Assembly (NCBI GenBank): GCA_965263355.1
Contig: CBDHHL010000032.1
Span: forward strand, 480,001 to 544,000
Reading direction: 5' to 3'
DNA length: 64,000 nucleotides
Source: Leptolyngbyaceae cyanobacterium
Lineage (GTDB): Bacteria > Cyanobacteriota > Cyanobacteriia > Phormidesmidales > Phormidesmidaceae
Positions 13,329 through 41,716 of the stretch are shown in pieces. Positions within the stretch are counted from its first letter, which is position 1, and each line of letters opens with the position of its first letter. The notes under the pieces were generated by a model. That model was not told the origin of the DNA. It did no database searches and was given only the letters and a program-made list of their open reading frames with translations. A program made the position numbers and the translations under genes.

Positions 13329-13649
13329 TCAAGCAGCTAAAACCTTAGACTCAAATTCTTGTTGATCTATAAAAGTTTTAAAGACTCGATCCATTTTTGT
13401 TAGTTCAAAGATGATTTTGACCTGCTCTGTCAGGCCGCAAAGATAAATCTGCTTCCCTTTGGCTCGAACAAGTTTTAGCATAGCGACCATGGCACCAATA
13501 CCAGTACTGTTCATAAATGTCACCTGTTTCATATCTAACAGAAAAATATCAATATCCTGATGTAGTAAGTCACTTACTTGAAGCTTGAGTTCGTTAGTTG
13601 TAGCACCATCTAGAATGCCTGTTGGTTCAAGTTTTTTAAGGTTAGCCAT
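13329..13649 (-). CDS. STAS-domain anti-sigma factor antagonist (RsbV/SpoIIAA-like)
   Basis: G.LD, LDMKQVTFMNSTGIG (phosphoacceptor Ser retained), IFELTKMDRVF. Confidence 0.93.
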   Translation of the reverse strand: MANLKKLEPTGILDGATTNELKLQVSDLLHQDIDIFLLDMKQVTFMNSTGIGAMVAMLKLVRAKGKQIYLCGLTEQVKIIFELTKMDRVFKTFIDQQEFESKVLAA

Positions 13650-13803
13650 TGTCGAAAGGATCTCCTAAATTGCGACAGTAATGTACTGAAAGATATTAGG
13701 CTAGAAGCTGGGTGCCTCTGATTGTGGCACTTAGTTGTGTCGTAGGAACTACAAAAATACTTTTGGTGAATTTTGTAGAAAGAACGGCCTCAAAAGTTAT
13801 GGC

Positions 13804-16206
13804 TTAAGAGACTGTCTCGGGTTGCCAATAGGCTGCCCGGATAACAACCCAAAGTAACGCTAAGTGATAGCATCCCCATCCAACATTGACCAGGTATGTT
13901 AAGGGATCTGGCCATTGTCCTAAAATTAGCTGTATTAGTCCCCACAGCATACCTGCAATAGTAAGGGTAAAAACAATTAACTGTATGCGTACAAGCCCCC
14001 AAAACACCCCAGATTTTCGTTGCTTGGGTGTAACCTTAAATGAGACTTTTTTACCAGTCAAAACACTCCAAACAGCCTGAATTTGCAATGGAAAAAGAGC
14101 GATAGCATATTGTTCATTACGCCATATTTCTTGTTTGGGCACTTCCCATGCTGCAGCCAGTAAGTTAAGACGGTTAATCAGATAAGTTGGGGCAAAGTGT
14201 AGTATAAATGCTGGGCCATAACTAGTCACAGGGCTAAGCCCTGTAAAGAATGAAATAATTGGGCAGACTAAAAAGATAATTACAAAAAAGCCTGCAAAAT
14301 AGCTGTACATCGTCTGAAAATACTGAAGCCGTTGCCAGAATGTGAGACCTGACTTGAATAAAGGATTATCTCTGACTAGTACCTGTATGGTTCCTTGAGC
14401 CCAGCGTAATTTTTGGGTTAGCGTGGAACTGAGGTCGTCAGGGGCAAGTCCCTCTGCCAAAACTTCATGGTGATAAACAGATTGCCAGCCAGCTGAATGG
14501 AGGCGCATCGCTGTATTCATGTCTTCTGTAATACTAATGCTTGAGACTCCACCAATTAGATCAAATTCATCCAATCGGCTTTCATCAGCTGCAAAATCAT
14601 CAGCAAAATGCTGCAATCCCATACTCACCAACGCTTCTCGTCGTAAAATTGCATTAGTTCCGGTATAAAAGGCGGCATTCATGCCATCCTTAGCTTGTTG
14701 AATAGGGCCATAGAAAAAATGAGCGTCATGGCCAAAGGGATCACCTTTAGGTAAGTTGTAAAATGCCTGAGGAGTCTGCACAAAGGCAACTTTATTTAAC
14801 TCATAGCGCCCTTGATCCAAATTAAAGTGGAAAAAGTTAGGCAGTACCCGCTGCAAAAATTGCGGCTTAGGAATATGGTCTGCATCTAAAGTAACAATAA
14901 AGTCACCCTGGGTTTCACCACAGAAAATAGCATGGTTAATATTCCCTGCTTTAGCATGGTGAGGACGATCTTTAGGCTTTTTGCGGGCAATGTAGCGACA
15001 ACGAGCTAAATCACTTAAAGCAAAGGTTTTCTTATCAATTTGTGCCTCTAACTTACGAATATTTGCTTCCAGCATTGCAGTTGCAGTAGAGTTTTCTGAC
15101 TGACTGAGTAACAGCAGCTGTCGTAGGCTTTGTATGTGCCCTTGAGTTTGCCAAGATTTCGAGTCTTCTAAGGAATCCTTTGAAACAAATTTCTTAATCA
15201 TTATCAGACAGTTGCGATCATCGGGATCACGGACATATGCCAAATGATCTGCAAGCTGTCTCAAAATGCTGATGCCACGACCACGTTCTGCATCTTGATC
15301 AATTTCATCCGGTAGTGTTTGCAAATGTTTCTCAAAATCAAAGGGAGCACCTCGATCCCAAATTCGTATGATAATTGCGAAGTTAAGAATGACGACTTCT
15401 AAATCGATCGGAGTCTCTGATACCAGATGCTTGTGGGCATGACTGACTACATTATCGAATCCTTCACCTAATAAGGTTTGAGCTGAAAACCAAGCATCGT
15501 CAGGGATTATAGACTGTTTTAGGGTGCTAAACCAATCCATGATTGACTCTAATTCATTAAAATCGGTTTTCACTCGAATTTTTTGACAGCTGAGATTCTT
15601 TTCTACAGTTTCTAAATCCTGTCGTAGATACTGTATTTGCTCTAGACGGCTGCTTAAATAATAGCGTTCAGCCTCTATCTGTTCAGCTGTGAGCTGTAAG
15701 GCAGGTGACTTAAGGTCTAGAAGACAGAGTTGTTCTGCCATAGCTCGCATATCCGGAGAATTTCCATCATCCAGTATATAAATCCGCAGCTTATTGGCAG
15801 GATAGGCCATCTTTAAAGCCGATTCCGCCGTTTCTTTGACAATGTCAACGGGCTCACTATAACAAGTGATAAAAATATCAACAGTTGGATAGTTAGCTTT
15901 CGGTAACGTTGGGGTGAGTTGATCAAGGTTTTTGACCCGACGCTCAATCGGTCGCCATAGCCCAACTAAAAAAAGTACGCCGCCAACGAACATGTATACT
16001 TCAGCTAATACCAGCGGCACTGAAAACCAGAGAGCATCTGTATTGAGGGACTGAGTTAACCGCCACTGCAAATACCATGCACCAACAATTAGATTTACTA
16101 AAACCAAGTAACGAAAAAGTAAGGTGCGATCGCGCAAACGCACTTGGATATTGTTCATCAGTGGTTTCTGATCCAGCTGACTAATAAAGCTACTCATTAT
16201 CAACAA
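13804..16206 (-). CDS. Cellulose-synthase-like processive GT2 with inserted HATPase_c (RsbW/SpoIIAB-like) domain; no PilZ
   Basis: DDG, HAKAGN, DADH, QTPQ, TED, QKLRW, FKVTPK and TM helices. Insert aa ~208-340 has EGFDNVVSHA, IWDRGAPFD, ERGRGISIL. Protein ends just after the last TM. Confidence 0.92.
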   Translation of the reverse strand: MLIMSSFISQLDQKPLMNNIQVRLRDRTLLFRYLVLVNLIVGAWYLQWRLTQSLNTDALWFSVPLVLAEVYMFVGGVLFLVGLWRPIERRVKNLDQLTPTLPKANYPTVDIFITCYSEPVDIVKETAESALKMAYPANKLRIYILDDGNSPDMRAMAEQLCLLDLKSPALQLTAEQIEAERYYLSSRLEQIQYLRQDLETVEKNLSCQKIRVKTDFNELESIMDWFSTLKQSIIPDDAWFSAQTLLGEGFDNVVSHAHKHLVSETPIDLEVVILNFAIIIRIWDRGAPFDFEKHLQTLPDEIDQDAERGRGISILRQLADHLAYVRDPDDRNCLIMIKKFVSKDSLEDSKSWQTQGHIQSLRQLLLLSQSENSTATAMLEANIRKLEAQIDKKTFALSDLARCRYIARKKPKDRPHHAKAGNINHAIFCGETQGDFIVTLDADHIPKPQFLQRVLPNFFHFNLDQGRYELNKVAFVQTPQAFYNLPKGDPFGHDAHFFYGPIQQAKDGMNAAFYTGTNAILRREALVSMGLQHFADDFAADESRLDEFDLIGGVSSISITEDMNTAMRLHSAGWQSVYHHEVLAEGLAPDDLSSTLTQKLRWAQGTIQVLVRDNPLFKSGLTFWQRLQYFQTMYSYFAGFFVIIFLVCPIISFFTGLSPVTSYGPAFILHFAPTYLINRLNLLAAAWEVPKQEIWRNEQYAIALFPLQIQAVWSVLTGKKVSFKVTPKQRKSGVFWGLVRIQLIVFTLTIAGMLWGLIQLILGQWPDPLTYLVNVGWGCYHLALLWVVIRAAYWQPETVS

Positions 16207-16509
16207 AAAATAATTATGTAAGTGACTCTAGGTTCTCTAAATTAATTGCCTCTATATTTCCATGACTCTCAAGCTCTTGAATCACATTAAGATTGAAAGT
16301 CAATTCCTAGTAATGGCAGCAGTAGACGCCTAAGTTAACAATCATTTGTGGGGCAGTACTAATGAGTTTTCCCGTTAGTCTAAATGGATGAACAATATTA
16401 CTTTATTAACCCCTAGAACCATAATGTTTTATTATCTGATGAGGTTGTAGACATCATTATTAAGCCTTTTACTCAGAAGACTGGTACGCCCCATGAACAT
16501 GGGCAATGC

Positions 16510-18246
16510 TTAACCATTGTCACCGATCAATAAACCAATAAGTCCAATGAGCGAAGCATTATAGTCGATAGCATATTCATTCGTTGCATACGACTTCTCA
16601 TCATCTAAGTAACTCAATATACCTAAGCCTTTTGGAGCAATATTATCTTGAGCATCAGAATTCGGACCTCCAACGACTAGACCAGGAATCAGTAAGCCTT
16701 TAGCACGGGCAAATAGATGGTTTACATGACGTACTGGACGAGCCCCAATACCTGTCACAAAAGTTTGATTAAAAGGATTACGACCTAGTAAGAAATGAAG
16801 CTGATCTAACGCAGCAATTTGGTAACGCTGATCCTGACTAATCTGGTATGCATAGACTAGGGTAATCCCCTCTTCTGCTGCCAGTTTATTAGAGCCCCAG
16901 ATAAAACGATGATTGGCTAAGCGGTAACCGTTATTTTCGACCCTCGCTAGAATCTCATTAGCTCTTTCTAGTAACTTTTTGTCAATGATGGCTTGAAACT
17001 CTCGTGAAATAGGCTGCCGCTGCTGCAATCGGTAATCTACTAACGCTAACGGTGATAAATTTTTCCATTCAAATAAGGTATAGGGGATCTTGGGTAAATA
17101 GAGTTCTACATACTGTTGGTATTTTTTAGCTCCAGTTGAAATATAGAGTTCTGTAGCTGCCCAGAAACGGTCATCAATATCAGTGTTAAGACTCTCTTCT
17201 TGATCAATATCTGAACCCAAGTATTTTCCTGAACCGCTATCATCACTTTCGATCCAATCAACCTGCATAGTAGATTGATTCTCCAAGTATTGCCAGGCTA
17301 GGTTTGCAGCGGTTTGATATTGATTAGCAAGGTTAGAATCAAATGTTTCAAAGACTCGGGCGGCCATGGCCATGACACCAGCAAACTTACCTGTTTCAGG
17401 GGTAGAAATCCCATAGATATAACGAATTTGTCGATCTTCATCAGGTGCTAATCCAATGGGCCATTCTGTTCCAGAAAGTTTTCGATAGACACCCCCATCG
17501 GACCGCTGCATCCTTAACATCCAGTCCAGTCCAAATTTCATTTCATCTAGAATATCGGGAGTGCCGTTACCGCTTTCTGGAATTGTCAATTGTCTATCCC
17601 AAAATAGACTGGGATTTTGTTCATAAAGACTCAGAATACGGGCAATCGTTGTCGCAGTTGTGGCAACATACTTGCCATAATCTCCTGCATCATGCCAGCC
17701 TCCTGTTGCGTCGATTTGATCGCTTGCTTGGTGTAAGTCATCGGCACGAGCTAAGTTGTGATCGTATAAGTGACAAGGAGCGTGGTACAAACCTGTAATA
17801 GGATCGTCTAGAATGACGCCACAACGTTGTAAATAATAAGATCTTAGCAATGATATAAATGTTGCTTGGTATGCATTAGTAGAAATACTAAATGGAGCAG
17901 ACTCTACAGAACCTGCTCGGACTAAGTATTCTCCAGGTTGCCGGAAATCACTCAAGTCAACGGATTGCAAGTTATCTCCACTCAGATGATCAGCCTGTAC
18001 TACAGTAGGTGTATCTAGTTCACTTATCTGTCCATCAGTTAAGCTAACCAACTCCAGAGGGATACTCTTAGGAGCATTGGCTAAAAAGACAACTTTTGGC
18101 CATTGTGGATGATATCCCACTTGGTTTAATAATACTTTCATAGGAGATTTCGGAGACTGAGCTTGCCCTGAAAATTTTGTACTACAAGCAATAATTAGAA
18201 AAATTGCAATGGTTGTTAAAATTAGGAGTTTATAAATACGTTGCAT
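16510..18246 (-). CDS. GH9 endoglucanase, probable lipoprotein
   Basis: Lipobox IIAC; NQVGY Ig-like module; GGWHDAGDYGK; YLDDEKSYATNEYAIDYNA. Confidence 0.93.
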   Translation of the reverse strand: MQRIYKLLILTTIAIFLIIACSTKFSGQAQSPKSPMKVLLNQVGYHPQWPKVVFLANAPKSIPLELVSLTDGQISELDTPTVVQADHLSGDNLQSVDLSDFRQPGEYLVRAGSVESAPFSISTNAYQATFISLLRSYYLQRCGVILDDPITGLYHAPCHLYDHNLARADDLHQASDQIDATGGWHDAGDYGKYVATTATTIARILSLYEQNPSLFWDRQLTIPESGNGTPDILDEMKFGLDWMLRMQRSDGGVYRKLSGTEWPIGLAPDEDRQIRYIYGISTPETGKFAGVMAMAARVFETFDSNLANQYQTAANLAWQYLENQSTMQVDWIESDDSGSGKYLGSDIDQEESLNTDIDDRFWAATELYISTGAKKYQQYVELYLPKIPYTLFEWKNLSPLALVDYRLQQRQPISREFQAIIDKKLLERANEILARVENNGYRLANHRFIWGSNKLAAEEGITLVYAYQISQDQRYQIAALDQLHFLLGRNPFNQTFVTGIGARPVRHVNHLFARAKGLLIPGLVVGGPNSDAQDNIAPKGLGILSYLDDEKSYATNEYAIDYNASLIGLIGLLIGDNG

Positions 18247-18294
18247 AATCTTGGGAGTAAAGTATCGTCCTGAGACGCATTTGACTTGGTAAAT

Positions 18295-18460
18295 CCTGAC
18301 TTTTCCTGCTAAGTCCTATGACCGCCCAATATCAAGGATCTATAATCAGATTTTTCTCAATAAGGTTGATTTATTGAGAATAGCTCACGAGCTGATAGGG
18401 GTTTCACGTAGCGAAAATCGGGCAGATTTTTAGCTCCAAAAGATAACGGGAAAAGTCAGG
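18295..18460. mobile_element. 166-bp MITE with 17-bp TIRs and 6-bp target duplication
   Basis: CCTGACTTTTCCTGCTA ... TAACGGGAAAAGTCAGG (15/17 match), flanked both sides by GTAAAT (18289-18294, 18461-18466). Confidence 0.85.
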
Positions 18461-18486: not shown

Positions 18487-20907
18487 TTAGCTAGATCCTT
18501 TAACGGAATTATGGCTAGTTGTAGGAGGGATAATTTGGAATAAGAACGAATTATCTGCTAGGAAGTTGTCGTGATCATCATGCAGAGTTACTGTGAACTC
18601 ATATTCACCCAATTGAGTAGGGGTATAGTGTGCTATCTCCAAACGTTGATTACTATCAGCAGCTACGTTATAGGTAAAGTGTTTAGTAGCAATCACCTCA
18701 TTTTGATAACTAAGCGTAAAGGTTATCTGTGTATTTGGAAAATCTTTCCATAGATCATTAATTATCCATACTGGCAAATCGACATTCTCACCAATATGCC
18801 AGTTCTGTTGAGTCCACTCGATACTCGGTAGCAATGGTTGATAGGCACGTCTAAGAGACTCAAAGGCAAGTTTTGGTGTGCGCCAATAGTCTACAATTCC
18901 CCAATTAATTGAAGGCCAGTTTTCAGTAAACATGAACTGGAAAATACCTGAAACCGGCTGATATTTCTGTCTCCGATAAGCTTCCGCAGCAAACTGGTTA
19001 ACTAAGGCCTGATACTGTTGAGTGTTCTTAACAAATTCGCTAGGGCTTTCCCCCATAGTTACTTGAGCTAGATTAAATGTCTCATGTTGCTGAAAATTGT
19101 GATATTCCCATTTAGCCCAGTCATGTTCGTTATCTGGCCAGAGTTCATCTTCTGAAAAGATACGACGAAGTGCACTAATACTGGGTAAAGCCTGGGCTCC
19201 AAATTCAGTAATCAGGGGTTCTTCTGTTGATTCAGCATACTTTTCAAACGTATTTGAATACCACCCCCACCATGGATGTTCTGAAGTTAACGAGGCTTTA
19301 TGTAAATAACGAGACGAATCGTATCCCTTTAAGGCATTGAACAGCGCACGGTCAAGCTGATAGTTTTGTTTAGGATTATAGGTCTTATATTTATATTGCA
19401 TCCAGTCTGCATCCCAGGGTGGTTCATTATGCATACTCCAGGCAAATATAGATGGGTGGTTATACAGTGTGTGGATCATCGCTTTCCCCTGACGAATTGC
19501 TTCTTTTTGGAAACTGCTGTCATCCACATATCCCCATTGCAAGGGGAAGTCTTGCCAAACTAAGATGCCGTTGCGATCGCATCCTTCATAAAACTCTTTA
19601 CCCGTAACATGAGCATGCACCCTGACTGCATTAATATTAGCTTTTTTTATCAGGCCAATATCAAAAAGATATTTATCTGCAGTCATTTCGCTCAGCCACT
19701 GGCTGGCTATGTAGTTAGTCCCTCGTAAAAATAATCTCTTTCCATTTAGTTTCCAGATCTGTTGTTTTTGATCCCACTCTACGGAACGAAAGCCAAAAAC
19801 AGTTTCATGTTGATCTAAAATCTTTGTAGAGTCAGTAATTTCTAACTTAAGACGATATAGATTGGGCTCACCATGCTCCCAGTCCCACCAAAGTTTAGGG
19901 TGGTCTTGCTTTAGATTAATTTTAAAAGAATTATACTTTGGATGAATACGACGTTGAATACGCACATGTTCCCCAGGATTACCTAAAAAATTTTCAGGCA
20001 TCAATTGAACATCCAAGGTAATTTTCTCGTTTTGTGTCCCTTGATAGTCAAGATTTATATCTAGCTCTGCTGTTGCCTCATTACTATTGTGATTCAATTT
20101 GGGTGTCACTCGTACATTATCAATTGCTAGCGTATATGAGCTTTTCAGGTAAACAGGGGCCCAAATACCTCCGGTATTTTTTTCTTGACCACGGTCTGTC
20201 CAAGCTCCTCCAGGACGAGTATCGTGATGAGTAAAAATTCCTTTAATAAGACGTTTATGTAAAGACCAATCCTGTCTCTGTTCTTCTAGGGGACTATTAA
20301 CTCGAACCATTAAAATATTTGAACCGTTTGAGTTTAGAAATCGATCAACTTGAAAATCGAAAGGTTCAAAGTAGCCCTGGTGTGAACCTAGATAATGACC
20401 ATTTAGCCAGACATCAGCTTCATAATCTACCCCCTCAAATACAAGCTTGACGACATTATCTCCAGGCATCAAACTCGGAGGCACTTCAAAAGCACGCTGA
20501 TACCACACAACACCATGCAGGTCCTGCCCCTGCAGATACCAGTTACCAGGCACATAAAGAGTTTGCCAGGTTATGTTTGTAAAATCAGGTAAAACCTCAT
20601 TGTGGGGAGCAAGGAGATATGAAGATTCATTTTGCTGCTCAATTGTCTCAGCCCAAAATTTCCAATCCCCATTTAAGGAAAACTGGTTGTTAATGTCATG
20701 ACCATTAGGCATAAAATGAGCATTAACCAATGACGTCGATTGAAAATTAAGACCCAGCACAGCTAAAATCACAACAATAGCAATGACTACTCGTTGACTT
20801 CCGAGCATAAGTTTACGAGTTATCCTAATAATCATTTTTATTTTTTCTTTCGCTATAAGGGCTTCCTTAGCATCTTTTCCCATTGAGACTAATCTTTCTG
20901 GCAGCAA
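18487..20907 (-). CDS. GH2 glycoside hydrolase (beta-mannosidase/galactosidase-like), secreted; true start probably downstream
   Basis: FEGVDY..VWLNG, GGIW.PV, RGTN, WQDF, HNEP (acid/base), TEFG (nucleophile). Confidence 0.9.
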   Translation of the reverse strand: MLPERLVSMGKDAKEALIAKEKIKMIIRITRKLMLGSQRVVIAIVVILAVLGLNFQSTSLVNAHFMPNGHDINNQFSLNGDWKFWAETIEQQNESSYLLAPHNEVLPDFTNITWQTLYVPGNWYLQGQDLHGVVWYQRAFEVPPSLMPGDNVVKLVFEGVDYEADVWLNGHYLGSHQGYFEPFDFQVDRFLNSNGSNILMVRVNSPLEEQRQDWSLHKRLIKGIFTHHDTRPGGAWTDRGQEKNTGGIWAPVYLKSSYTLAIDNVRVTPKLNHNSNEATAELDINLDYQGTQNEKITLDVQLMPENFLGNPGEHVRIQRRIHPKYNSFKINLKQDHPKLWWDWEHGEPNLYRLKLEITDSTKILDQHETVFGFRSVEWDQKQQIWKLNGKRLFLRGTNYIASQWLSEMTADKYLFDIGLIKKANINAVRVHAHVTGKEFYEGCDRNGILVWQDFPLQWGYVDDSSFQKEAIRQGKAMIHTLYNHPSIFAWSMHNEPPWDADWMQYKYKTYNPKQNYQLDRALFNALKGYDSSRYLHKASLTSEHPWWGWYSNTFEKYAESTEEPLITEFGAQALPSISALRRIFSEDELWPDNEHDWAKWEYHNFQQHETFNLAQVTMGESPSEFVKNTQQYQALVNQFAAEAYRRQKYQPVSGIFQFMFTENWPSINWGIVDYWRTPKLAFESLRRAYQPLLPSIEWTQQNWHIGENVDLPVWIINDLWKDFPNTQITFTLSYQNEVIATKHFTYNVAADSNQRLEIAHYTPTQLGEYEFTVTLHDDHDNFLADNSFLFQIIPPTTSHNSVKGSS

Positions 20908-21131: not shown

Positions 21132-24068
21132 CTATTCAATCATTGTTTGAAGGAGTCTTATTCCTTCACTAAGAGCCTCTTCAAGCTTTGGAATACAATT
21201 TTCAAGCACCATATTCCCAGCACGACTTTCATTCTCGATATCTTGACACAGATGTTGGACTGCAACCATGCCCAGTGCTGCGCTACTCGACTTTAAGGTA
21301 TGGGCCGCATAAGCAATTTGTTCAATATCTTGAGCATGTACAGCATTTTTAAGAGATTTTGCCAGCTGGGGACTTTCCTTTAAGTAAATCTCAACAAATA
21401 ATTTTAGATTTTCAGGCGTCAATCCACCTAAAGGAGCCAATGTCTTTTCTAGGATACTTTTATCCAGATAAGTTATCTGGTTATCAGTACCTAATACCGC
21501 TGAGGGTTCCTGGGAATCACCAAGTGTTTTATCAGAGGCGATATCCTCAAGCTGTGGAGCAGGATAAGAGTTTTCAATGGAGCAGCGTTCTAAAGCCTCT
21601 AGCAGTTCTTCAATTTGGAGAGGTTTACTAATATAGTCATCCATACCCGCTGCCAGAAATTTCTCCCGGTCTCCTGTCATAGCATTGGCTGTCACTGCAA
21701 TGATGTAAGGCTGCTCATCCTCTGACCATGATTGCCGGATGGCCTTTGTCGCGGCTAAACCGTCCATTTCCGGCATTTGAATATCCATCAAAATGACATC
21801 GTATGCTTGGCGTTTTAGACAGTCGAGTACCTCTAATCCATTGCTAACTAAGTCCGGACGGTATCCCAATTTAGCCAACCATTGCTGAGCAAGCTGTTGG
21901 TTCACCATATTATCTTCAGCTACCAAAATCTTACATGGCAACCTTTGGGCCATTGTACTATCTATCTGTTTGCCCTTGGTTACTAGGGGTTGGTAAGTTA
22001 CTTTACCCGTAATGCCATAGGTCAAAGCATTGTACAGATCATTTTGACGGCATGGCTTATTTAGAAAAACAGCAATTCCTGCCCGCAATGCTTTTTCCTT
22101 AAGATCATAAGTACGGACAGAAGTAAGCATTATCATTGGTAAATTAGGGCACTGATGCTTTAGTTTTGAAGCCAACGTTAGACCATCCATGCCCGGCATT
22201 TGCATGTCTAAAATAGCAACATCAAAAGGCCGTTCTATTTGCCCAATTACGCCTAAGGCCTCGTAGCCTGATCGAGCCGAAAATACATCCATCTCCCATT
22301 GTTCTACTTGATGAGTGAGGATCTTGCGATTAGTCTCATTATCATCCACAAGTAACAACCGCTTACCCTTAAGTTCAACTCTTGGCAGTTCTGAATTAAT
22401 CTCTGAAATAGCCTGGGCTTTGATAGTAAAGAAAAATTTTGATCCCTTATTCAGCTCACTCTCAACCCAAATATCTCCTCCCATGGCGTGACAAAGACGT
22501 CTACTAATCGCCAGCCCCAAGCCAGTCCCCCCATATTTACGTGTAGTTGATGAGTCAACTTGTTGAAATGCGTCAAAAAGCGACTCTACCCGATCTGCTG
22601 GAATTCCGATACCAGTGTCACTTACACAACAGCGAATAAGATATAGGGCTTTATCAGAAGTAGCCTCATCTGATATGGGCTCCGCAAAAACCCTGATCAC
22701 AATTTCACCTTCGTGGGTAAATTTAATAGCATTACCTAATAAATTCACTAGAATTTGGCGTAGCCTTGTTACGTCCCCAACCAAGCTCACAGGCACATCC
22801 AAATCAATCTGGTAGGCTAGTTCTAGCCGCTTTTCAGATGCCTTGGGTACAACTAAATCCAAACACTCTTCAATACAGGACCTTAAATTAAAAGGGCATT
22901 CTTCTAACTCTAGTTTGCCAGATTCGATTTTAGAAAAGTCAAGAATATCGTTAATAATACGTAGCAGGCTGTCACCACTATGACGAATAGTAGACGCAAA
23001 GCCAATTTGTTGATCATTGAGCTCAGTATCTAGCAACAGGCCCGTCATACCAATCACCCCATTCATGGGTGTACGAATTTCATGGCTCATGGTAGCCAGG
23101 AAATCACTTTTGGCCTGTGCAGCGGCTTCGGCTATATCTTTTGCTTCTTTAAGAGATTGTTCACGGGTAACTACCTCGTAGGCCATATGTTGAAAGGCAC
23201 GGGCAAGTTCTCCAGGTTCATCTGATCGTTTAGCAATAGGATTTAGAATAGTAAATTTCTGTTGCCAGTCGTCTAAAGTGGGAAGTGAACTTCCACGGAC
23301 CTGTTTTGCTAAATGGGTGAGTTTTTTCAGGGGGTGAACCACCTTCTGTTTTAGTAAGCGGTTCATAAGGAATATGATTGTAGCCATTATGCCAATAATG
23401 ATGGCCATAACCAGCTTCAGGTAATGGTACCCCTGCTGTAGTAACGTATCAGCAGGAATATAAATGGTTTGAGCAGCAACTACTTCGTTTAATTTCCAGT
23501 TATATCCTTGTTTACTGCCATAGGTCTTTATCATGCTTTGGGGAGCATCATCGACACGGCCATGACATTCTAAACAACTACTTTTCTTAATGGCTAAAGG
23601 ACGAGCTATATAAAAAAGCTCCTTACCATCCTGTTCTCGATATCCACTAAGTTCTTCAGGGGCATCATCCTGGCGAAAAGCATTGACTATATTGGTTTCA
23701 AAGTCATCTGCCTGGTCCCTAGGGTTTGATGGATTTAACGTCGCTTCTTTATATAGAAAATTACTATACTCAGGAGATTCTCGAAAATGTTCAAATACTT
23801 CTCTAGCACCATAGGCCGGTACAGTTTCTCTGATAAATGAGCTAGATTGAGCTAACTGATCAGCCAGTTGGGGTTTGATGCTTTCGCTTGTATAGTTCCG
23901 CACGGCATTCATGGTTTGAATCATCATATGTGCCCGTGCTTTGATCTCGACTTTGGCCAGCTGTTGCATTGCGCTAGAAAGTGCAAGGCCGCTAATGACT
24001 ATCCCACCAATAAAAACGATAGTAAAAAACAGTGTGAACTGTCTATTCAGCGTTTGATTTTTGGCCAT
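21132..24068 (-). CDS. Hybrid histidine kinase: DUF3365 (c-heme) sensor-HAMP-HisKA-HATPase-REC-REC-Hpt
   Basis: [13 protein letters not shown] and CLECH between two TMs; [17 protein letters not shown]; two D.QMP receivers; AHTLKSSS. Confidence 0.93.
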
Positions 24069-26131: not shown

Positions 26132-26592
26132 AATTCGCTGCGCTTTTGGTAGATAACTCGAAACAAGTATTAATCTCGACACTCAAATGTGCTTTGTGAT
26201 ACTTTTTCGCTGCTGTCACTATTAAAGCTTGTGTGGAATCAATAGCCCTTGAGGGATATTTGCCATATGGAATGGCTTTCATTATGTGGTTATCGTTAAC
26301 CTAAATTTTTCTACAGATAGGGTCAGATAAGTTTTAAGGTGTGTTAACTCTGATGGGATAACTCTGATGATTAATAGGCTTGAGGCTTGATAAGAGTTCT
26401 GAAGGGTTAAAATCAAGCTTTCTTTAAGGGAATGGGTAATATAAGAATAAATTAGTCAAGTTTAGGGAGTGCATTTTTCTAGAAACAAGGTATGAGAATA
26501 AACTAAAAGAAATCGGACAATAACCAATTTTACCTTTATCACTGGAACATTGCTTCAGCTTGTAATACTCAAAACAGGTAATAAATATGTAG

Positions 26593-34449: not shown

Positions 34450-35778
34450 TTAGTTCTCGATCACATCTAAGATAGCTTGATTGCCAAGCGCCTTGTAGTA
34501 AATAATTTCTAAGATAAGGCCGTTAGTATTACCGGTTAAGATGGTGTTTATTTCCTCACTCTCTTCATAGAGACCAGCGTAGAATCCACCTCCGTCAGGA
34601 TCTTGGAGATCTTTTACAGCCTTGATTAGCTTTAAAGTATAAGGTTTTTTGGGAAATAGGTAATACCACCCAAACGCCGCTTTTGTACTAAGCGTGCGTA
34701 GTTCTGGATGGGGCTCATTTTCTTCTGTAATTACAGCCCATGGAGTTCCATTAGCATAAAGAGTGCTATAGAGAAAATGAGGAGCTTGATCAATGTTGTC
34801 TTCAGAGACAGCGGTGAGGTACCCTGTTTCTTTATATCTATTTTCCTGGGCAGCTAGGATGTCTTCTGCATACTCAGCCAGAGTTTCATCCCATCCAAAC
34901 TCAATGGCTTCTAGAATATAAGACTCACTAACTACATAGTTATTAGCGTCAGTTTCTTCAAAATTACGCTGGTCTACAGGGATTTTCACCCCGCTCACAT
35001 CTACCAGTTTCATCGGTTCTGTTTCTAGTGCCTTTGGAACCTCCAATCCCCAAAGCTCATAGCCACGGGCAGCATATTCTTCGTAACCAAGGCGGCCCTC
35101 CTGTACGGGTAAAAGTTTACCATTAGATTTAAAGACCGCACCATAGAGCTGGCCCTCTTTGATAGAACGAGGAAGTTGCCAACCCGACATCAGGTCAGAA
35201 ATCCAATTGTCATATTGGGGATGGCATGTGCGAATGATATGTAGGGCTGTAAGAAAGCGACCAATGTCTAAAGCCGACCAGCCTAATCCTTTTTTGGTGG
35301 GATTGTTTCCATAGTCTACCATCTCTCCGGTAGCACTGTTGTACACCTTATTGGGCAGTGCCCCCTCCACTAGCGGTAGCTCTCCAAGAGAGGTTAAAAA
35401 TTGATTGAGTTGCAGATCAAACTCACCTTGATCAATTAATCCCATCCATCGAACTGCATTCAAGGCCATTAAGTAATTACCTTGATCCCAAAGAGTCCCA
35501 GAGGGAAACTGATTGGCAGAGTTGGTAAATCCGGTTTCTGGTTGCCGATTATTGACAAAGTACTGCCAGGCTGCAGATGCATAGACTTTCTCTTGTTCAG
35601 TTAGAGGAGCGGTTAACTGGCCACAAAGGTTATTGGATGTCTCTTTTGCGGTTGCAGCTTGAGAATCAGACTTGGGACTGTCGATTTCAATGGTGCCACT
35701 AGTACAAGCTGACAAACCACCCATTACTAAAATAATAGCAAATAGACCTTTCAAAATTTGAGATTGATAGAAATTCAT
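34450..35778 (-). CDS. DUF3131-domain lipoprotein
   Basis: Lipobox LSAC; AWQYF..N..PETG, TLWDQG, LPNKVYN, GWSALDIGR, QEGRLGYEEY, NTNG.ILE. Confidence 0.85.
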   Translation of the reverse strand: MNFYQSQILKGLFAIILVMGGLSACTSGTIEIDSPKSDSQAATAKETSNNLCGQLTAPLTEQEKVYASAAWQYFVNNRQPETGFTNSANQFPSGTLWDQGNYLMALNAVRWMGLIDQGEFDLQLNQFLTSLGELPLVEGALPNKVYNSATGEMVDYGNNPTKKGLGWSALDIGRFLTALHIIRTCHPQYDNWISDLMSGWQLPRSIKEGQLYGAVFKSNGKLLPVQEGRLGYEEYAARGYELWGLEVPKALETEPMKLVDVSGVKIPVDQRNFEETDANNYVVSESYILEAIEFGWDETLAEYAEDILAAQENRYKETGYLTAVSEDNIDQAPHFLYSTLYANGTPWAVITEENEPHPELRTLSTKAAFGWYYLFPKKPYTLKLIKAVKDLQDPDGGGFYAGLYEESEEINTILTGNTNGLILEIIYYKALGNQAILDVIEN

Positions 35779-35783
35779 ATTTC

Positions 35784-37000
35784 CTAAGAGATATGCGCGA
35801 GTGGGTGACCGTTTTGAGTTTTGTACAACAAACTTTCAAGGATAATGGCGTTAGTATTGACATTGATCGCTTTGTTAGGACCAAGGTCTGGGTTCTCGTA
35901 TCGTCCTGATAGATACCCCTTGTGCTCATCGGCAAGGTTTTGCACTGCTTGTCTGAGGGTTTGGCAGTAATCGTTGTCGGGCAAAAGGCTACTCCAGGCA
36001 AAGGCTGCTTTTGCACTTAGAAAACGCAGATCAGGATGAGTGTTTCCTTTTACATCTGTTGCTGGCCAGGTCTGACCATCAGCATAAACACTGTAATAGA
36101 GAAAATAGGGTTTGCGATCCAGGGCATCTTCGTTTACTACAGTTAGTATGCCCGTGTTAGCATATCGATTTGCTTGAACCTGTAGAAGATTTTCAAGCTG
36201 GGGTTGAGTGGTATCAGGCAACCCTACTTCTATCCCTAAAAGTAAGTATGGATCATTGGTTAGATGATTGCTCGCTCCTGAAGAATTGAGATCGCGCTGA
36301 TCCACTATCAGGTCTACCTGATCAACAGTAACCCCCTGGGTTGGCGGGTTATAAGCGCTTTATCAGCTTCAATTCCCCATAGTTTGAAGCCATAGGCGGC
36401 ATATTGTTCATAACCTAATCGCCCTTCTTGCCAATACTGCAAACCATTACGGCCAGCTCCACTACCCCATAGCCAGCCATCTTTTACAGACTTGTTTAAG
36501 TCATAACGGGTCACGATGGTATTGATGCGATCGCGCAGCTCCGGATAATGGGTTTTAAGTGTGTATAAAGCCACCAGATATCGGCCCAAATCTAACGCAA
36601 ACCAGCCACTTGTCCCGTTGGGGTCAGGGCGATTACTTAATGTCCGCATGGTGGCTGTGTTGGTGCTATAGGCTTTATTCGGTAACCCTGTTGTCGGTAA
36701 GGGTAACTGTTCCAGAGTGCGTAACAGAATCGATAGTTTTTCAACCAATTCTGTTTCAGAAATTAGCCCTAGTTGACGAGCAGCATGGATTCCTAAGAGC
36801 GCACTCCCCTGGTCTCACCAGGTGGCCCAAGGCAGTCCATCAACAGCATTCACCAACCCGGTATCAGGATTCCAGTTATTCTCAAAATAGGTCCACGCTC
36901 GACGAGCCGCTACTCGATCCAGAGAATCTGCCATATGTTCCACACTGTCTAAGGGAAGAGACGGGCTAGCTAACTCAGATATCTCAAGAGATGGAGGAGC
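35784..37000 (-). pseudogene. Third DUF3131 domain, detached from the 39948 gene and disrupted
   Basis: Continues the upstream gene if the A8 run (37001-37008) were A9; TGA for Trp at 36815-36817; frameshift near 36352; the same DUF3131 motifs. Confidence 0.8.
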
Positions 37001-39948
37001 TTTTTTTTCTCCTCAATTAGGGCAATTTCTTCATTCAAACCTCTAGAAGTTTCAGCGATATTGGTCTCTCCTCCTTTAGCAACCCAGTATGCTCCCTGGT
37101 CATCGGCAACCATTTCGATGGTTGGTTGAGAGCCTTCGGGAAGGCCTAGCCCCAGTTCATCTCCGTCACGAATGGCATCCCACCACGGAGAGTCCATATC
37201 GTCATGGGGATAGATTAGAGGTTGCTGTTGAGTGTTTTTATGCAGTAAGGCTTGGAGAATTAGACTATTAGTGGAGCCCGTAAACCCAATGGCTCTACGA
37301 CCACCGTTTTCGTAAAAGCCCTCGTAATAACCAAGCTGTTGATTATACAAATCTAGAGTTGCTAGCCAAAGGTCTCGACCATAGTCACTATCAGGAAATA
37401 GGGTGTGATAGGCAAAGGCAACAGCTGTACTCACCACTCGAGAATGGGGAATAACGTCTCCATTATCGTCTACAGCAACCCAAGAACGACCATCGGAGAC
37501 AAGTGTACTATGCACCACATAAGGAGCTTCATTCACTAGGGTAGTTCCTGAAGCACTAAATATACCTGTGTGTTCATACCGAGTGGCTTCGGCCTGGTAA
37601 ATCGCGTCTACTAAGGCACTGATTTGGGGATCAAAGCCAAATTCTAGGCCATATAAGATAAAGGGTGTACTGGTGGTATTTAACAGTTCATTTCGACGAC
37701 GTTGCTCTGGCTGAGACCGATTAGTGGGAACTGCTTGTTCTTCTAGCTTAGTGGTGACATAGTTGCCGCCAACGGCTGAGCGAGAAGCATCAAATCCCCA
37801 CAGCTGAAAAGCCCGGGCGGCATATTCTTCATAGCCAAGGATTTCTGCAGGCTTGACTCGGATGCGATCTCGACCCCGATCATCCTGAGCCAAACGAGCA
37901 TTAGCAATACGGCCATTTCTAACCACTCGTAGATAAGACCAGTCCAAAGCTAACTTATCTACAACATCAGTATATTCGGGATGACAGGTTTTAAGTGTGT
38001 GCAAAGATGCCAATAGTCTTCCAATATCCAGGCCAGACCAGCCATCTCCTTGAGGAATGGAATTACCACCATAATCAATAGGTTCTAGAGAAAGGGTGCT
38101 GTAGGAACGATGAGGAAGCTCTCCAGCAAACAGTTCAATCTCCTGTAAAGCTCCTAGTAAATGCCGAATTCGTTCATCAAACTTTTTAGCATTAATCACA
38201 TCCATTGCCCGAGCAGCATGAAGCGATGCCAAATAATCTCCTATCCCCCAAAGAGTGACACCATCTAGATCACTACGATCAGGGACTAACCCTGAAGGAG
38301 TGTGGTTAGCTTCAAAATATTGCCATGCTGTTTTGGCATAACGCATATCTGTAACATTTAAAGGAGACACTACGGATGAGCAAGCCGAGGAGCGAGGTTT
38401 TTCCACCGGCTCAATAGCCGCAATCGTAACCCCCTCATGAGAAGCAGGCGGTGGTGGAGCAGCTGGAGCAGATTCCGCTGGTGGCGGTGGTTCAGGATTA
38501 CTGGCTGTTTCTGGAGGAGCTGCAGGTGGCGGTGGTTCAGCTGGTGGTGGTTCAGGGCTACTAGCTGTTTCTGGGGGTGGAGGTAAATCTCCTGTATTTT
38601 CCCCCGCTGGCACAGTAGGCACTGAAATAGGAGCACTGCCACTCGCCAACATGGGTATATAACCACGAGCTTTATAGTAAAGAATCTCCAAAATCAGTCC
38701 ATTACTATTACCAGTGAGAATATCATTAATAGGGGGCTGAGCATCATATAGGCCCGATTCATAAATACCTGCATAGTAACCCCGCCCAGAATTAGTTGTA
38801 TCCTTTACATGGTCAAAAATCTTGTGGGCATAGGGATCGTCAGGATAAACATAGCGCCATCCAAACGCAGACTTGGCACTTAAAGTACGCAGTTCAGGAT
38901 GCAGCTCATTATTCTCAGTAATAACGGCCCAGGGCACACCATTGGAATAGACGGTACTGTATAAAAAATAAGGAGCTTGATTAATATTGTCTTCGGAAAC
39001 AGCCGTTAACAGCCCAGTATCTTCAAAGCGTCGTTTCTGCGCTTCAAAGACCCTACGAGCATAATCTGCTTGATCTCCCTCCAGACCAAATTCAATAGCA
39101 TCCAGAATGTAAGACTCACTAACTACATAGTTGTTAGCATTTGTTGTCTGAAAATCCCTTGTATCGTACGGGATTTTTAGCCCATAAATATCTACAAAAT
39201 CAAACGGTTCATATGCGATCGCTTGAGGAGCATCAAATCCCCACAGTGCATACCCTCTCGCAGCATACTCCTCGTATCCTAAGCGTCCTTCCTGTACAGG
39301 TAGTGTACTATCGTCTGGCAAGACAGTAGCTCCATAGAGCATCCCATCTCTGACAGACGCCGCAATATTCCAGCTAGCAAGAATGCCAGCCATCCACTCA
39401 GAATACTGGGGATGACACGTACGTAAAATATGGAATGCTGCTAAAAGGCGACCGATATCCAGAGCTGACCAACCAATGCCTCGCTCTAATGGATTGTTAC
39501 CATAGTCCACCATCTCCCCAGTAGCACTGTTATAAACCTTGTTCGGTAGCGTATCTTCAAATAGACGCAGCTCTCCCAAACCAGCAAGAAATTTATTTAA
39601 TCGGCTATCAAACTCTCCCTGCTCAATTAACCCCATCCACCTAGCCGCATTCATAGCTGCCAGATAATTACCTAAGTCCCATAGCGTACCAGATGGATAA
39701 CCACCTGCAGAGTTGGACAATCCAGTGGATTCTTGAACATTATCCACAAAATAATTCCAGGCTGATTGAGCATAGCCCATTTCCTCTGGGGTCAGGGGTT
39801 GTGTAATTGCAGCACATTGCTCTGGACCATTTTGAGCCACAACGGGAGAGATCTGGAAAATAGATATCCATAGGGTAATAAATACTCCTACAAGCCAATA
39901 GGCAATAAATCTGATCCAGAATCGATGGCGAGTTAATAGTATTAACAC
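36970..39948 (-). CDS. Tandem DUF3131-domain protein (two intact domains, Pro-rich linker), C-terminally frameshifted
   Basis: Two copies of AW.YF, TLW..G.YL, GWS.LDIGR, GYEEYAAR; PPPPETAS repeats at ~38445-38585. Confidence 0.85.
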   Translation of the reverse strand: MLILLTRHRFWIRFIAYWLVGVFITLWISIFQISPVVAQNGPEQCAAITQPLTPEEMGYAQSAWNYFVDNVQESTGLSNSAGGYPSGTLWDLGNYLAAMNAARWMGLIEQGEFDSRLNKFLAGLGELRLFEDTLPNKVYNSATGEMVDYGNNPLERGIGWSALDIGRLLAAFHILRTCHPQYSEWMAGILASWNIAASVRDGMLYGATVLPDDSTLPVQEGRLGYEEYAARGYALWGFDAPQAIAYEPFDFVDIYGLKIPYDTRDFQTTNANNYVVSESYILDAIEFGLEGDQADYARRVFEAQKRRFEDTGLLTAVSEDNINQAPYFLYSTVYSNGVPWAVITENNELHPELRTLSAKSAFGWRYVYPDDPYAHKIFDHVKDTTNSGRGYYAGIYESGLYDAQPPINDILTGNSNGLILEILYYKARGYIPMLASGSAPISVPTVPAGENTGDLPPPPETASSPEPPPAEPPPPAAPPETASNPEPPPPAESAPAAPPPPASHEGVTIAAIEPVEKPRSSACSSVVSPLNVTDMRYAKTAWQYFEANHTPSGLVPDRSDLDGVTLWGIGDYLASLHAARAMDVINAKKFDERIRHLLGALQEIELFAGELPHRSYSTLSLEPIDYGGNSIPQGDGWSGLDIGRLLASLHTLKTCHPEYTDVVDKLALDWSYLRVVRNGRIANARLAQDDRGRDRIRVKPAEILGYEEYAARAFQLWGFDASRSAVGGNYVTTKLEEQAVPTNRSQPEQRRRNELLNTTSTPFILYGLEFGFDPQISALVDAIYQAEATRYEHTGIFSASGTTLVNEAPYVVHSTLVSDGRSWVAVDDNGDVIPHSRVVSTAVAFAYHTLFPDSDYGRDLWLATLDLYNQQLGYYEGFYENGGRRAIGFTGSTNSLILQALLHKNTQQQPLIYPHDDMDSPWWDAIRDGDELGLGLPEGSQPTIEMVADDQGAYWVAKGGETNIAETSRGLNEEIALIEEKKKLLHLLRYLS

Positions 39949-40041
39949 TTCTATGGGGACAACCTATAAGAATATCGGATGCAGATCAAAACTAATTTGA
40001 TGTGTAATGGAAGGATGCCCTAAAAAGGAAAACAACTATAT

Positions 40042-40281
40042 TCATTTGGAACTCGAATGTTGCCCTGTCCTTAAATAATCAAAAATTGAACAAATCTGGA
40101 TCTCTAAATGACTTTCTAAAGGTACAGTCAAAGATGATTTGACTGCAGAACTAGTCCTGGGAGATAAACGTTTACTAACATATTCCAGAGTAATGATTAG
40201 CCCTACTGCCGTTGTAATACCCCCAATCACTGTAAGCACAACCCAAATGGTTGGAGGACCTATAAAGTTATCTTGATTCAT
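40042..40281 (-). CDS. Small single-TM hypothetical protein, possibly a gene fragment
   Basis: Hydrophobic helix IWVVLTVIGGITTAVGLIITL; co-oriented upstream of the DUF3131 genes. Confidence 0.4.
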   Translation of the reverse strand: MNQDNFIGPPTIWVVLTVIGGITTAVGLIITLEYVSKRLSPRTSSAVKSSLTVPLESHLEIQICSIFDYLRTGQHSSSK

Positions 40282-40540
40282 ATATATTAAGGATTTTGAG
40301 TATATAACAATATTGTTCTGAAATAAACAGTGATGATGACTTTAGTTGATAGGAGGGGTGGAGTTTCTAAATTAGCGTTTACCCTTGCCAAATATAATCG
40401 GTGATTTCAACTATTTCTAATACAAGATGTTATATCTTGTTGGGTCCTCAAATCTTGTGGGTATATCTAAATTAGCATCTACAACAGTTTAAAAAACAGA
40501 GTATTCCAAGCTTTTGTGCAAGCCTAAAATCATAAAATAG

Positions 40541-41716
40541 ATGAAAACCAATGCTTCTTCAATTCTACTAATAGATGACGATCTATTCTCACGTAAACTT
40601 CTGCAAGCAATGTTGCAAAAGGTAGGTTATCAAGTTATCGAGGCTGATAGCGGCGATAAAGGTCTGGAACTCTATCAGAAAATTTCTCCTGCACTAATTT
40701 TGCTAGACGCCAAAATGCCTGGCATGAGTGGATTTGATTGTTGCCGCAAAATCCGTCAACTTCCTGAAGGAAAACATATTCCTATTCTGATGGTGACTGG
40801 ACTTGAGGATCAAATGTCAGTCGAGGAGGCGTTTGCTTCTGGTGCTACTGACTATGTAACAAAACCTGTCCAAATGCCTATTTTAGCAGGGCGTGTACGT
40901 TATTTATTAAAAGCTTGGCAGGCCGAGAAAGAAGTTCGAGAAAGCAATGAACGGTTCCGGTTAGAGTTACATCGAGCAGCTGAATATGTGGAAGCACTTC
41001 TCCCTAATAACGATGATTCTAAAAAAAAGGAGAATATTCAGGCAAATATTCAGATCAACGTCCAGTATCAACCTTCGAATACCTTAGGTGGTGATGCTTT
41101 TGACTATGTTTGGTTAGATGATGAACATCTAATGTTCCATTTACTAGACGTAGCAGGGCATGGGGTTAAATCTGCATTATTATCAGTATCTGTTCTGAAT
41201 ATTTTGCGAAAACAGACATTACAAGGAGCTAATTTTTATAGACCTGAAACAGTTCTTGAAGCTTTGAATGGTGTTTTCCAAGTTAGTGATGATGGTGAAG
41301 ATTATTTCACTTTCTGGTATGGGGTTTATAACATTACTAACCGAGAATTAACATTTGCTTCTGCAGGTCACCCTCCTGCTGTGTTGGCTATGCCTGAGGG
41401 TGACGATTATAAGACCTGCTATTTAGATAGCGATGGTATTGCTATTGGACTGTTACCTGACTTTCCTTTTGATGTAAGGAAATTTGAAATCCCGGTTGGC
41501 AGTAGTCTTTATCTTTTTAGTGATGGAGTCTATGAGATTCCTATGGGAGATGACCATGAAATTTGGGGATTAGACTCTTGGACACAAGCTTTGAGAGGGC
41601 ATAAAGAGGCTAAATCTGAAAACCTAAAACCTTTGTTAGATGAAGCTTGCCGTATAAATGGTGGAACTAGTCTAGAAGATGATTTTTCAGTTCTCGAAAT
41701 TTGTTTCTTACAATAA
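40541..41716 (+). CDS. REC-PP2C (SpoIIE/RsbU-type) Ser phosphatase
   Basis: REC (IDDD, LLDAKMP, KP); GGDAF, DVAGHG, SAGHPP, SDGVYE, DDFS. Confidence 0.95.
   Translation: MKTNASSILLIDDDLFSRKLLQAMLQKVGYQVIEADSGDKGLELYQKISPALILLDAKMPGMSGFDCCRKIRQLPEGKHIPILMVTGLEDQMSVEEAFASGATDYVTKPVQMPILAGRVRYLLKAWQAEKEVRESNERFRLELHRAAEYVEALLPNNDDSKKKENIQANIQINVQYQPSNTLGGDAFDYVWLDDEHLMFHLLDVAGHGVKSALLSVSVLNILRKQTLQGANFYRPETVLEALNGVFQVSDDGEDYFTFWYGVYNITNRELTFASAGHPPAVLAMPEGDDYKTCYLDSDGIAIGLLPDFPFDVRKFEIPVGSSLYLFSDGVYEIPMGDDHEIWGLDSWTQALRGHKEAKSENLKPLLDEACRINGGTSLEDDFSVLEICFLQ

Follow-up and report, generated by a model that had tools for sequence, protein, structure and literature searches.

A locus at positions 13329..41716 of a 64,000-nt stretch of a Leptolyngbyaceae cyanobacterium genome (contig CBDHHL010000032.1, positions 480,001–544,000; the whole stretch is hereafter the window) encodes a cellulose synthase-like enzyme of glycosyltransferase family GT2 with a SpoIIAB/RsbW-type kinase domain built into its catalytic domain, alongside the remaining parts of a partner switch, DUF3131 proteins and an outer-membrane barrel. 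We read it as a conserved system for beta-glucan synthesis and export, in which the synthase would be gated directly by the partner switch instead of by cyclic di-GMP (c-di-GMP) and its product remodelled by beta-1,2 chemistry, and we give this reading a probability of roughly 55%. The cluster is real, conserved across two phyla and partly known. Its anatomy, conservation, genetic linkage and orthology with the HcyA-D switch of Nostoc punctiforme can be read from the loci directly; that the synthase is what the switch acts upon, we infer. Genes were called from open reading frames and family scans, 41 window proteins were compared with Pfam, and published work is cited from those sections of each paper that were available. 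The core genes, with the broken DUF3131 domain, are as follows.

13329..13649, minus strand: STAS-only protein of the anti-anti-sigma type, 106 residues, phospho-acceptor Ser48 (PF01740, E 5e-17)
13804..16206, minus strand: PilZ-less, processive GT2 synthase of the 'CesA with PCR domain' family, 800 residues (family scan and motifs)
15187..15585, minus strand: SpoIIAB/RsbW-type kinase domain, about residues 208–340 of the synthase (PF13581, E 1.7e-15)
26593..27933, plus strand: outer-membrane beta-barrel, BcsC/PgaA-like and free of tetratricopeptide repeats (TPR), predicted polysaccharide porin, core in cyanobacteria (weak BCSC_C match, structural look-alikes)
34450..35778, minus strand: single DUF3131 lipoprotein with D171, E233, E326 and Y337 (family scan, predicted fold, profile)
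about 35784..36970, minus strand: domain 3 of the multi-DUF3131 gene, broken (frameshifted twice and carrying an in-frame stop)
36970..39948, minus strand: tandem DUF3131 protein, 992 residues (family scan)
40541..41716, plus strand: REC-PP2C (SpoIIE) phosphatase (family scan and motifs)

The synthase carries the complete D,D,D,QxxRW catalytic set (DDG 146, HAKAG 417, DADH 441, TED 560 and QKLRW 598). The initial annotation had called this protein a GT2-kinase, and the kinase is present there, not as a terminal fusion but inserted within the catalytic domain between DDG and DADH, with a HATPase_c_2 match in Pfam spanning residues 219–338. In a predicted model built on 39 sequences (mean pLDDT 77), two long helices, residues 165–205 and 346–395, flank the kinase and form a hairpin with the kinase at its tip. 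This helical insertion lies between U1 and U2, as in CesA proteins with a PCR domain. The body of the modelled synthase best matches BcsA, plant CesA and CslF6 in Foldseek, while the insert matches SpoIIAB (1TH8_A, target TM 0.73). Pfam returned no PilZ match to the synthase at E ≤ 0.01, and in the model the chain stops a few residues past the last membrane helix. The boxes of its ATP site are the N-box (E248, N252, H258), the G1 box (D284, G286) and the G2 box (ERGRG, 307–311), whose Glu/Asn/His, Asp/Gly and Glu/Arg/Gly residues are invariant in 39/39 aligned fused proteins. In a search with residues 90–460, PF13581 and GT2 were both present in all 120 matches listed, of 731 proteins.

The partners of this kinase are equally intact. 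The STAS serine, which aligns with the DSSG motif of SpoIIAA, is invariant in all 63 aligned locus STAS proteins, and the REC-PP2C retains Asp56 and its DVAGHG, SDG and EDD motifs. The locus thus holds a GHKL kinase with N, G1 and G2 boxes, a STAS protein with its serine and a PP2C with metal-binding Asp motifs, the complete triad that had been proposed, and the three are linked to the synthase across loci. The sigma factor that accompanies sigma-regulating switches is missing, also as proposed: no match was found among the 41 window proteins with Pfam, and the nearest Sigma70_r2 match lies at least 60 kb from the synthase in 5/5 genomes.

To place the locus among its relatives, we compared synthase neighbourhoods in the best 80 of 274 related stretches from a genome scan. 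These comprise 46 fused loci (kinase inside the synthase), 33 split loci, in which a synthase of about 660 residues keeps the hairpin and lacks the kinase, and one partial locus. Adjacency was counted in loci with enough flanking DNA (1.5 kb or 4 kb downstream, or 9 kb or more on each side). In 27/37 fused and 30/31 split loci, STAS follows the synthase at no more than 1.5 kb. Where 4 kb or more of downstream DNA is available, 25/29 split loci have a stand-alone kinase, about 140 residues long, near the synthase, versus 0/32 fused loci; the figures for PP2C are 27/29 and 16/32, respectively. In the 44 loci with 9 kb or more on each side, STAS was counted 41 times, DUF3131 37 times, PP2C 31 times and the barrel 28 times. 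Within the clade of the window, PP2C and DUF3131 fall outside the 10-kb flank; in extended regions PP2C adjoins DUF3131 in 4/4 cases where DUF3131 was retrieved, and a fifth region had neither. STAS homologs elsewhere in the genomes that lack an adjacent STAS could not be separated from paralogs.

Across 301 cyanobacterial genomes (synthase threshold E ≤ 1e-80, two genomes with DUF3131 fragments alone set aside), the synthase occurs in 18 and full-length DUF3131 in 18, with 17 in common. Removing the centre genome leaves an overlap of 16/17 each way, versus 0.96 expected. The co-occurrence check suggested by the initial annotation therefore supports its core, since synthase, STAS, PP2C, DUF3131 and barrel associate far above chance, whereas its accessory block (GH9, GH2, GH16, RTX and heme kinase) does not. 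The conserved core is a PilZ-less synthase with kinase, STAS, PP2C, three to four DUF3131 domains and a BcsC/PgaA-like barrel. Among 74 synthase cores placed in one tree the split form makes up a single clade, and a second tree, of 85 kinase rows, likewise groups the 28 cluster stand-alone kinases together; the trees are unrooted with respect to fusion versus fission, and the kinase tree does not resolve whether the stand-alone copies derive from the insert.

The core extends beyond the cyanobacteria. A plasmid survey gave 28 records with a DUF3131 match, of which nine were examined, eight of them proteobacterial. In six of these eight (Pantoea, Salmonella, Vibrio, two Paracoccus and Pseudooceanicola), a related synthase of about 605 residues is accompanied by two to three DUF3131 domains, a SpoIIE phosphatase and a stand-alone RsbW-type kinase. 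STAS is present in 5/6, its place being taken by IS66 in Pantoea, and OpgC or another acyltransferase in 4/6. The proteobacterial synthases (L127–L134) lack the hairpin; in them QRxKY replaces QxxRW and SED replaces TED, a change that may alter acceptor binding or linkage. Accessory block 3b of Klebsiella pneumoniae resembles the window locus in combining a cellulose synthase, three DUF3131 domains, a hybrid kinase and an anti-sigma factor with its antagonist, and differs from it in including OpgC (PMC12974863). In L130:8672-11092 and L135:1275-4106, DUF3131 of a distant subfamily is joined to other domains and neighbours a different GT2, with no switch genes.

The initial annotation suggested that such a system is uncharacterised, which holds only in part: the synthase has been knocked out in Synechococcus PCC 7002 (PMC4851311) and HcyA-D has been studied (PMC9127174), but the available sections of neither paper link the two. 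Alr3757, Npun_F1469 and SYNPCC7002_A2118 are described as synthases that lack PilZ and have their PCR domain located between U1 and U2 (PMC12430437), sharing with our enzyme the position of the insertion and the D,D,D,QxxRW set. A2118 has 788 residues and about 90 residues of extra insertion relative to the Nostoc enzyme (PMC4851311), the size and insertion expected for the fused form. The mutant of this synthase loses a cellulase-sensitive periplasmic layer labelled by a cellulose-binding domain, and grows slowly only at low salinity (PMC4851311). The available text of these papers does not name the insertion as a kinase or mention partner genes, and takes the product as cellulose (PMC12430437, PMC4851311).

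HcyA-D of N. punctiforme comprises STAS, PP2C, an RsbW-type kinase and a hybrid kinase in the order of the split loci; its kinase is stand-alone and its readout is hormogonia, whereas in the window the kinase resides inside the synthase (PMC9127174). The cloning primer for HcyC (XbaI, labelled 'hcA') matches exactly, over 29 bases, the start of the cluster kinase in locus L076 and the same stretch in L064, a flank primer for HcyA-D falls in the cluster PP2C in 13/80 loci with two to three mismatches (PMC9127174), and HcyA S49 is the conserved cluster STAS serine. By primer and serine position, the split-form genes are the published HcyA-D switch. HcyC binds HcyA and not SigC, SigF or SigJ, and the words 'cellulose' and 'glycosyl' do not occur in the available text (PMC9127174). 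Elsewhere, alr3758 has been read as a heterocyst-induced sigma regulator (PMC4192349), alr3756-57 and alr3760-61 are listed separately (PMC12267927), and in PMC13712970 none of the terms Hcy, 3758, 3760 and cellulose occurs.

Two other partner switches provide precedents. All4160/HenR/Alr3423 and SypA/SypE of Vibrio fischeri also have a polysaccharide output, with dephosphorylated STAS as the active form (PMC13555669; bioRxiv 10.64898/2026.04.08.717354; PMC8256260), and HmpV is likewise active when unphosphorylated. All4160 differs in that STAS, not the kinase, is fused to a priming sugar transferase, and Alr3760 did not bind the All4160 STAS (PMC13555669; bioRxiv 10.64898/2026.04.08.717354). 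The Bcs system (BcsA-B-C-Z) shares the GT2 fold, a BcsC-like barrel and periplasmic glucanases, yet here the synthase has no PilZ, BcsB is absent, the barrel carries no TPR, and the DUF3131 array and the partner switch are present instead. A search confined to the open-access literature returned no paper describing the synthase kinase insert and none assigning DUF3131 to the SGL clan of beta-1,2-glucan enzymes. As far as the available portions of that literature go, the parts have been studied separately, and no publication was found that brings them together, describes the built-in kinase or makes the DUF3131 assignment.

BCSC_C matches weakly in 23/30 aligned barrels at E ≤ 0.05 (best 1.9e-5; row 1 of this alignment is an incomplete window fragment), TPR are absent, and the closest structural look-alikes in the atlas are YaiO/PgaA barrels (score 0.96). 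The barrel has no PDB sequence match, and its profile recovered no proteobacterial barrels. That no recognisable BcsB is present was confirmed: Pfam found none among the 41 window proteins, and none lies within 1 Mb of the synthase in 5/5 genomes, three of which have one more than 1 Mb away.

The predicted structure of DUF3131 (pLDDT 95) is an (alpha/alpha)6 barrel whose closest relatives belong to the SGL clan. Among 48,161 chains, the top eight matches are all SGL-clan members or the cyclic beta-1,2-glucan synthase CGS (Z 35.9–24.7, the next being 21.6): the GH189 domain 8WY1 leads (Z 35.9, root-mean-square deviation 2.9, 348 residues), followed by full CGS (32.2), GH144 (31.2, 31.0 and 30.2), GH192 (28.7), GH194 (28.3) and GH162 (24.7). 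The top Foldseek ranks agree, and a hidden Markov model match to 8WY1 has an E of 0.0011. Sequence identity to clan members is 11–14%, and a single-sequence PDB search with DUF3131 gave no match, so that the clan was found by profile and fold alone. Profile comparison with CGS rose from a probability of 64% to 89% and then 95% after the CGS helical insert was removed and the alignment deepened; the final alignment (95%, E 3e-8) does not fix the acid register. Comparison with a small GH144 set, some rows of which are probably wrong frames, gave no signal (probability 0.25). The clan comprises GH144, 162, 189 and 192–194, and its description does not contain 'DUF' in the available main text (PMC12102758).

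Of 175 locus DUF3131 domains, 174 fall into four types. D171 is invariant and E233 is present in 169/175, while E326 is Glu in 120/120 copies of three types and Thr in 54/54 of the fourth, which also alters D98 and Y337. Among 161 diverse DUF3131 domains, E233 is retained in 152 and E/D326 in 148. E233 fits the XcSGL acid E239 by motif and helix position, an assignment made by eye for which E227 is an alternative. By profile, E326 aligns with the WGISE motif of CGS and Y337 with its YQY motif, the XcSGL counterpart of the tyrosine being Y367, and the position of XcSGL F286 is possibly acidic (E285) in DUF3131. We take the WGISE glutamate to be the GH189 nucleophile (E1442), and a count of the 86-residue spacing agrees. 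On these models, DUF3131 is predicted to be a retaining, possibly transglycosylating enzyme. The GH189/SGL clan and the OpgH/G/D/C system resemble our loci in the predicted barrel and motif order, in OpgC beside the proteobacterial copies and in the low-salinity defect of PCC 7002; our loci differ in that several copies of DUF3131 are present and exported, and that their partner is a BcsA-like synthase, not one of the OpgH/CGS type. PF10091 (CGS/GH144) occurs in 13/301 genomes and overlaps the synthase solely in G202, too few for interpretation. G202 is also the sole sampled synthase genome without a DUF3131 match and has a CGS-sized PF10091 protein (G202:C134:20257-20895), which may reflect chance or incompleteness.

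All four DUF3131 domains that had been reported in the window were located, the third being broken. In the tandem protein, domain 1 retains the putative catalytic set and domain 2 is the conserved degenerate type. Short-read runs X1, X2 and X3, which belong to one study and may include the source of the window, were examined at the breaks. The X1 contig (depth 17.8) has all three, the X3 contig (depth 22.5) keeps both frameshifts and lacks the stop, and the X2 contig (depth 3.4) has insertions at both frameshifts, lacks the stop and looks intact. Because X1 and X3 carry breaks, the third domain looks like a strain-level pseudogene; assembly error was rejected as the cause, since both contigs hold both frameshifts. 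With one DUF3131 type lost in the window strain, its product may therefore be simpler or the locus decaying. In one relative (L082/L084), the multi-DUF3131 gene lies in pieces about 170 kb apart.

In the mechanism that we propose, an interchangeable hybrid histidine kinase would phosphorylate REC-PP2C, which would in turn dephosphorylate Ser48 of STAS. Free STAS would then bind the built-in kinase domain and release an inhibitory clamp on the synthase, a clamp that might be a kinase-mediated dimer, and the kinase domain would reset the switch by re-phosphorylating STAS. We lean modestly, by analogy, towards dephosphorylated STAS as the on state, given anti-sigma logic, the All4160, SypA and HmpV precedents and the opposition of HcyA to HcyC. 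The glucan chain would cross the inner membrane, the DUF3131 barrels would cut and re-join it in the periplasm, and part of the polymer would leave through the outer-membrane barrel. The DUF3131 set, with three predicted active types and one degenerate, would probably yield or act on beta-1,2 links. We put the odds slightly below even that DUF3131 works on this product and that the polymer contains beta-1,2 links. The product is likely not plain cellulose, a doubt that stems from the DUF3131 fold and from OpgC in the proteobacterial copies. A broader proposal is more tentative and, in our view, somewhat doubtful: in a cross-phylum class of glucan secretion systems, a processive synthase would be switched by a built-in kinase domain at the position of the plant-conserved region (P-CR), DUF3131 would be a new retaining branch making a mixed or branched beta-1,4/beta-1,2 envelope glucan, and the target of HcyC would be the synthase.

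Several observations weigh against direct gating combined with beta-1,2 remodelling. The synthase scores 311 bits against BcsA and only 35 bits against OpgH/MdoH, one SGL-clan group is inactive on beta-1,2-glucan, and the layer of PCC 7002 is cellulase-sensitive and binds a cellulose-binding domain (PMC4851311). The G1 Asp, retained in 45/45 fused kinase domains, is kept in only 1/28 stand-alone cluster kinases. Loss of hcyA lowers the number of hormogonia induced by ultraviolet-A light, with no polymer mentioned in the available text (PMC9127174), the upstream primer of hcyA matches no locus, and the N. punctiforme synthase tag Npun_F1469 lies about 210 tags from hcyA (PMC12430437). The contrast between fused and split loci counts as one observation and not 61, because it reflects a single evolutionary event. 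In the proteobacterial copies the contact between synthase and kinase must differ, because the hairpin is absent, and in Sulfitobacter and Mesorhizobium a distant DUF3131 stands beside another GT2 with no switch genes.

Among rival explanations, direct gating might hold while the product is plain cellulose; DUF3131 would then take the roles of BcsB and BcsZ as a periplasmic guide or editing glucanase, and beta-1,2 chemistry would be absent. The full set of cellulose-synthase motifs, the PCC 7002 layer (PMC4851311), the absence of BcsB around the synthase, the degeneracy of one DUF3131 type in 54/54 copies and the presence of GH9 in some loci all fit this account, which we nevertheless consider unlikely. 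A little less probable is that the switch controls another target, such as transcription or hormogonium development, with the synthase as a membrane tether or a co-regulated gene. The hormogonium phenotype of hcyA (PMC9127174), the reading of alr3758 as a sigma regulator (PMC4192349), the 10/37 fused loci in which STAS is not adjacent to the synthase and the 12–33 Sigma70_r2 matches per genome would be accommodated by it. It is harder to reconcile with the failure of HcyC to bind any of three sigma factors (PMC9127174), the distance of at least 60 kb to the nearest sigma gene, the in-frame insertion in the catalytic domain in 46/80 loci, and the persistence of the triad beside the synthase in Proteobacteria, which form no hormogonia.

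We regard two further alternatives as very improbable. The switch could act through a diguanylate cyclase and c-di-GMP: the window encodes a REC-GGDEF protein (46720-47727) and a GGDEF-EAL protein (50643-52394), and the title of Baena et al. 2019 states such a route for mixed-linkage glucan in Sinorhizobium. The synthase, though, is PilZ-less and ends soon after its last membrane helix, and a GGDEF homolog lies near the synthase in 2/80 loci. Alternatively, the insert could be mainly a dimerisation module, like the oligomer-forming plant P-CR whose U1–U2 position it occupies, with phosphorylation incidental. The stand-alone kinases, mostly without the G1 Asp, would agree with this, but the ATP-site residues are invariant in the fused copies and the STAS serine is present in 63/63. 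In 25/28 stand-alone kinases (L045–L080, e.g. L076:9423-9839) the G1-box position is Ser, and 27/28 of these Nostoc-type kinases lack the Asp. Because this Asp is replaced, HcyC/Alr3760-type kinases may have little or no kinase activity and serve as adaptors.

The PilZ-less cyanobacterial synthase is a candidate ancestor of plant CesA, and the available review sections give no mechanism that switches it on (PMC12430437). The built-in kinase offers a directly testable answer in two tractable strains, PCC 7002 and Anabaena PCC 7120, and the synthase is offered as a target for the sigma-less HcyA-D switch. DUF3131 gains a predicted fold and candidate catalytic residues, and the identity of the polymer as cellulose is questioned. 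On the broader, more doubtful proposal above, plain cellulose would not be what the 'plant-like' cyanobacterial cellulose synthase makes, and HcyC would have its missing target in the synthase. Because the same gene set makes up the Klebsiella accessory block and recurs on plasmids, both enterobacterial and marine, it may specify an envelope glucan that has so far gone unrecognised.

The remaining genes of the locus and its downstream side are accessory or candidate inputs.

16510..18246, minus strand: GH9 endoglucanase-like protein with a lipoprotein-like signal, accessory (PF00759, E 1e-78)
18487..20907, minus strand: GH2 glycosidase, accessory (family scan)
21132..24068, minus strand: Tll0287-type (CxxCH) hybrid kinase, REC-REC-Hpt, accessory, candidate input (family scan)
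24292..26282, minus strand: RTX-GH16 gene, broken, accessory, GH16 part 24292-25542 (best NCBIfam match EglC, below its cut-off)
28249..33648, plus strand: RTX repeat protein, 1799 residues, accessory, possible adhesin (52 PF00353 stretches)
42899..46475, plus strand: PAS-only protein and PAS-GAF hybrid kinase (REC-REC-Hpt), second candidate input, downstream of the phosphatase (family scan)
46720..47727, plus strand: REC-GGDEF diguanylate cyclase (family scan)

The initial annotation had placed STAS, GH9, GH2, the hybrid kinase, the barrel, the giant RTX protein and REC-PP2C correctly, and the RTX-GH16 gene too is where it was reported, split by a stop and frameshifts; its GH16-side break lies outside the coverage of the short-read contigs. 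Two cluster genes are broken in the dominant strain (35784-37006 and 24292-26282) and one is split in L082/L084; the locus may be under relaxed selection in the lineage of the window. GH9 occurs near the synthase in 6 of 80 loci, GH2 in 4, GH16 in 3, the RTX C-terminus in 7 and the Tll0287 sensor in 6, and we rejected the hydrolase mix and the heme kinase as core parts, each being found in 3–7/80 loci. The mix had been taken as a hint that the polymer is not plain cellulose; that doubt is justified by the DUF3131 fold and proteobacterial OpgC, but the mix itself is weak evidence because the three hydrolases are so seldom near the synthase. In the close relative L002, the barrel adjoins the synthase without the GH9-GH2-kinase-GH16 block. 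GH2 is also found in the Pantoea and Salmonella copies, and the Vibrio copy is flanked by a similar giant repeat protein.

The heme-sensing hybrid kinase, proposed as the input, is present with its CxxCH motif, but its sensor domain is confined to those 6/80 loci, and a histidine-kinase core of some kind occurs in 46/80. The sensor is interchangeable, and the PAS/PAS-GAF hybrid kinase, which lies outside the coordinates first annotated, is an equally good candidate; its gene order is the same in two relatives, and this sensor region occurs in 8/80 loci. The REC-GGDEF gene, beyond the two loci noted above, has homologs in L081, L084 and L085 and is linked in close relatives only. Heme-type sensors recur beside the switch, with an annotated globin (L132:14798-15232, without a Pfam match), an annotated H-NOX (L133:4049-4591) and the Tll0287 protein of the window; oxygen, nitric oxide or redox may be a common input.

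Nostoc-type loci have further recurrent neighbours. A PIG-L deacetylase-like gene follows the synthase in 24 loci (e.g. L074:2302-3015), a GH26-like gene precedes it in 10 (e.g. L056:7360-8472), and in nine (L050, L052, L056 and six others) the DNA downstream of the hybrid kinase carries genes for a Rab-like small GTPase, a coiled-coil protein and a member of the OmpA family as a recurrent set. In the window, STAS is followed directly by a degraded IS1-like element (12305-13300), beyond which further short, interrupted frames extend towards 11300. An actin-like gene (ParM-type, weak ALP_N) with a small downstream partner at 9604-11263 resembles a plasmid segregation pair, here on a chromosome-sized contig. 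On the minus strand, 49504-60911 holds a second signalling cluster consisting of a REC-histidine kinase, REC-GGDEF-EAL, a HAMP-GAF-PAS kinase, an NMT1-like binding protein and a CBS-PAS-GAF kinase.

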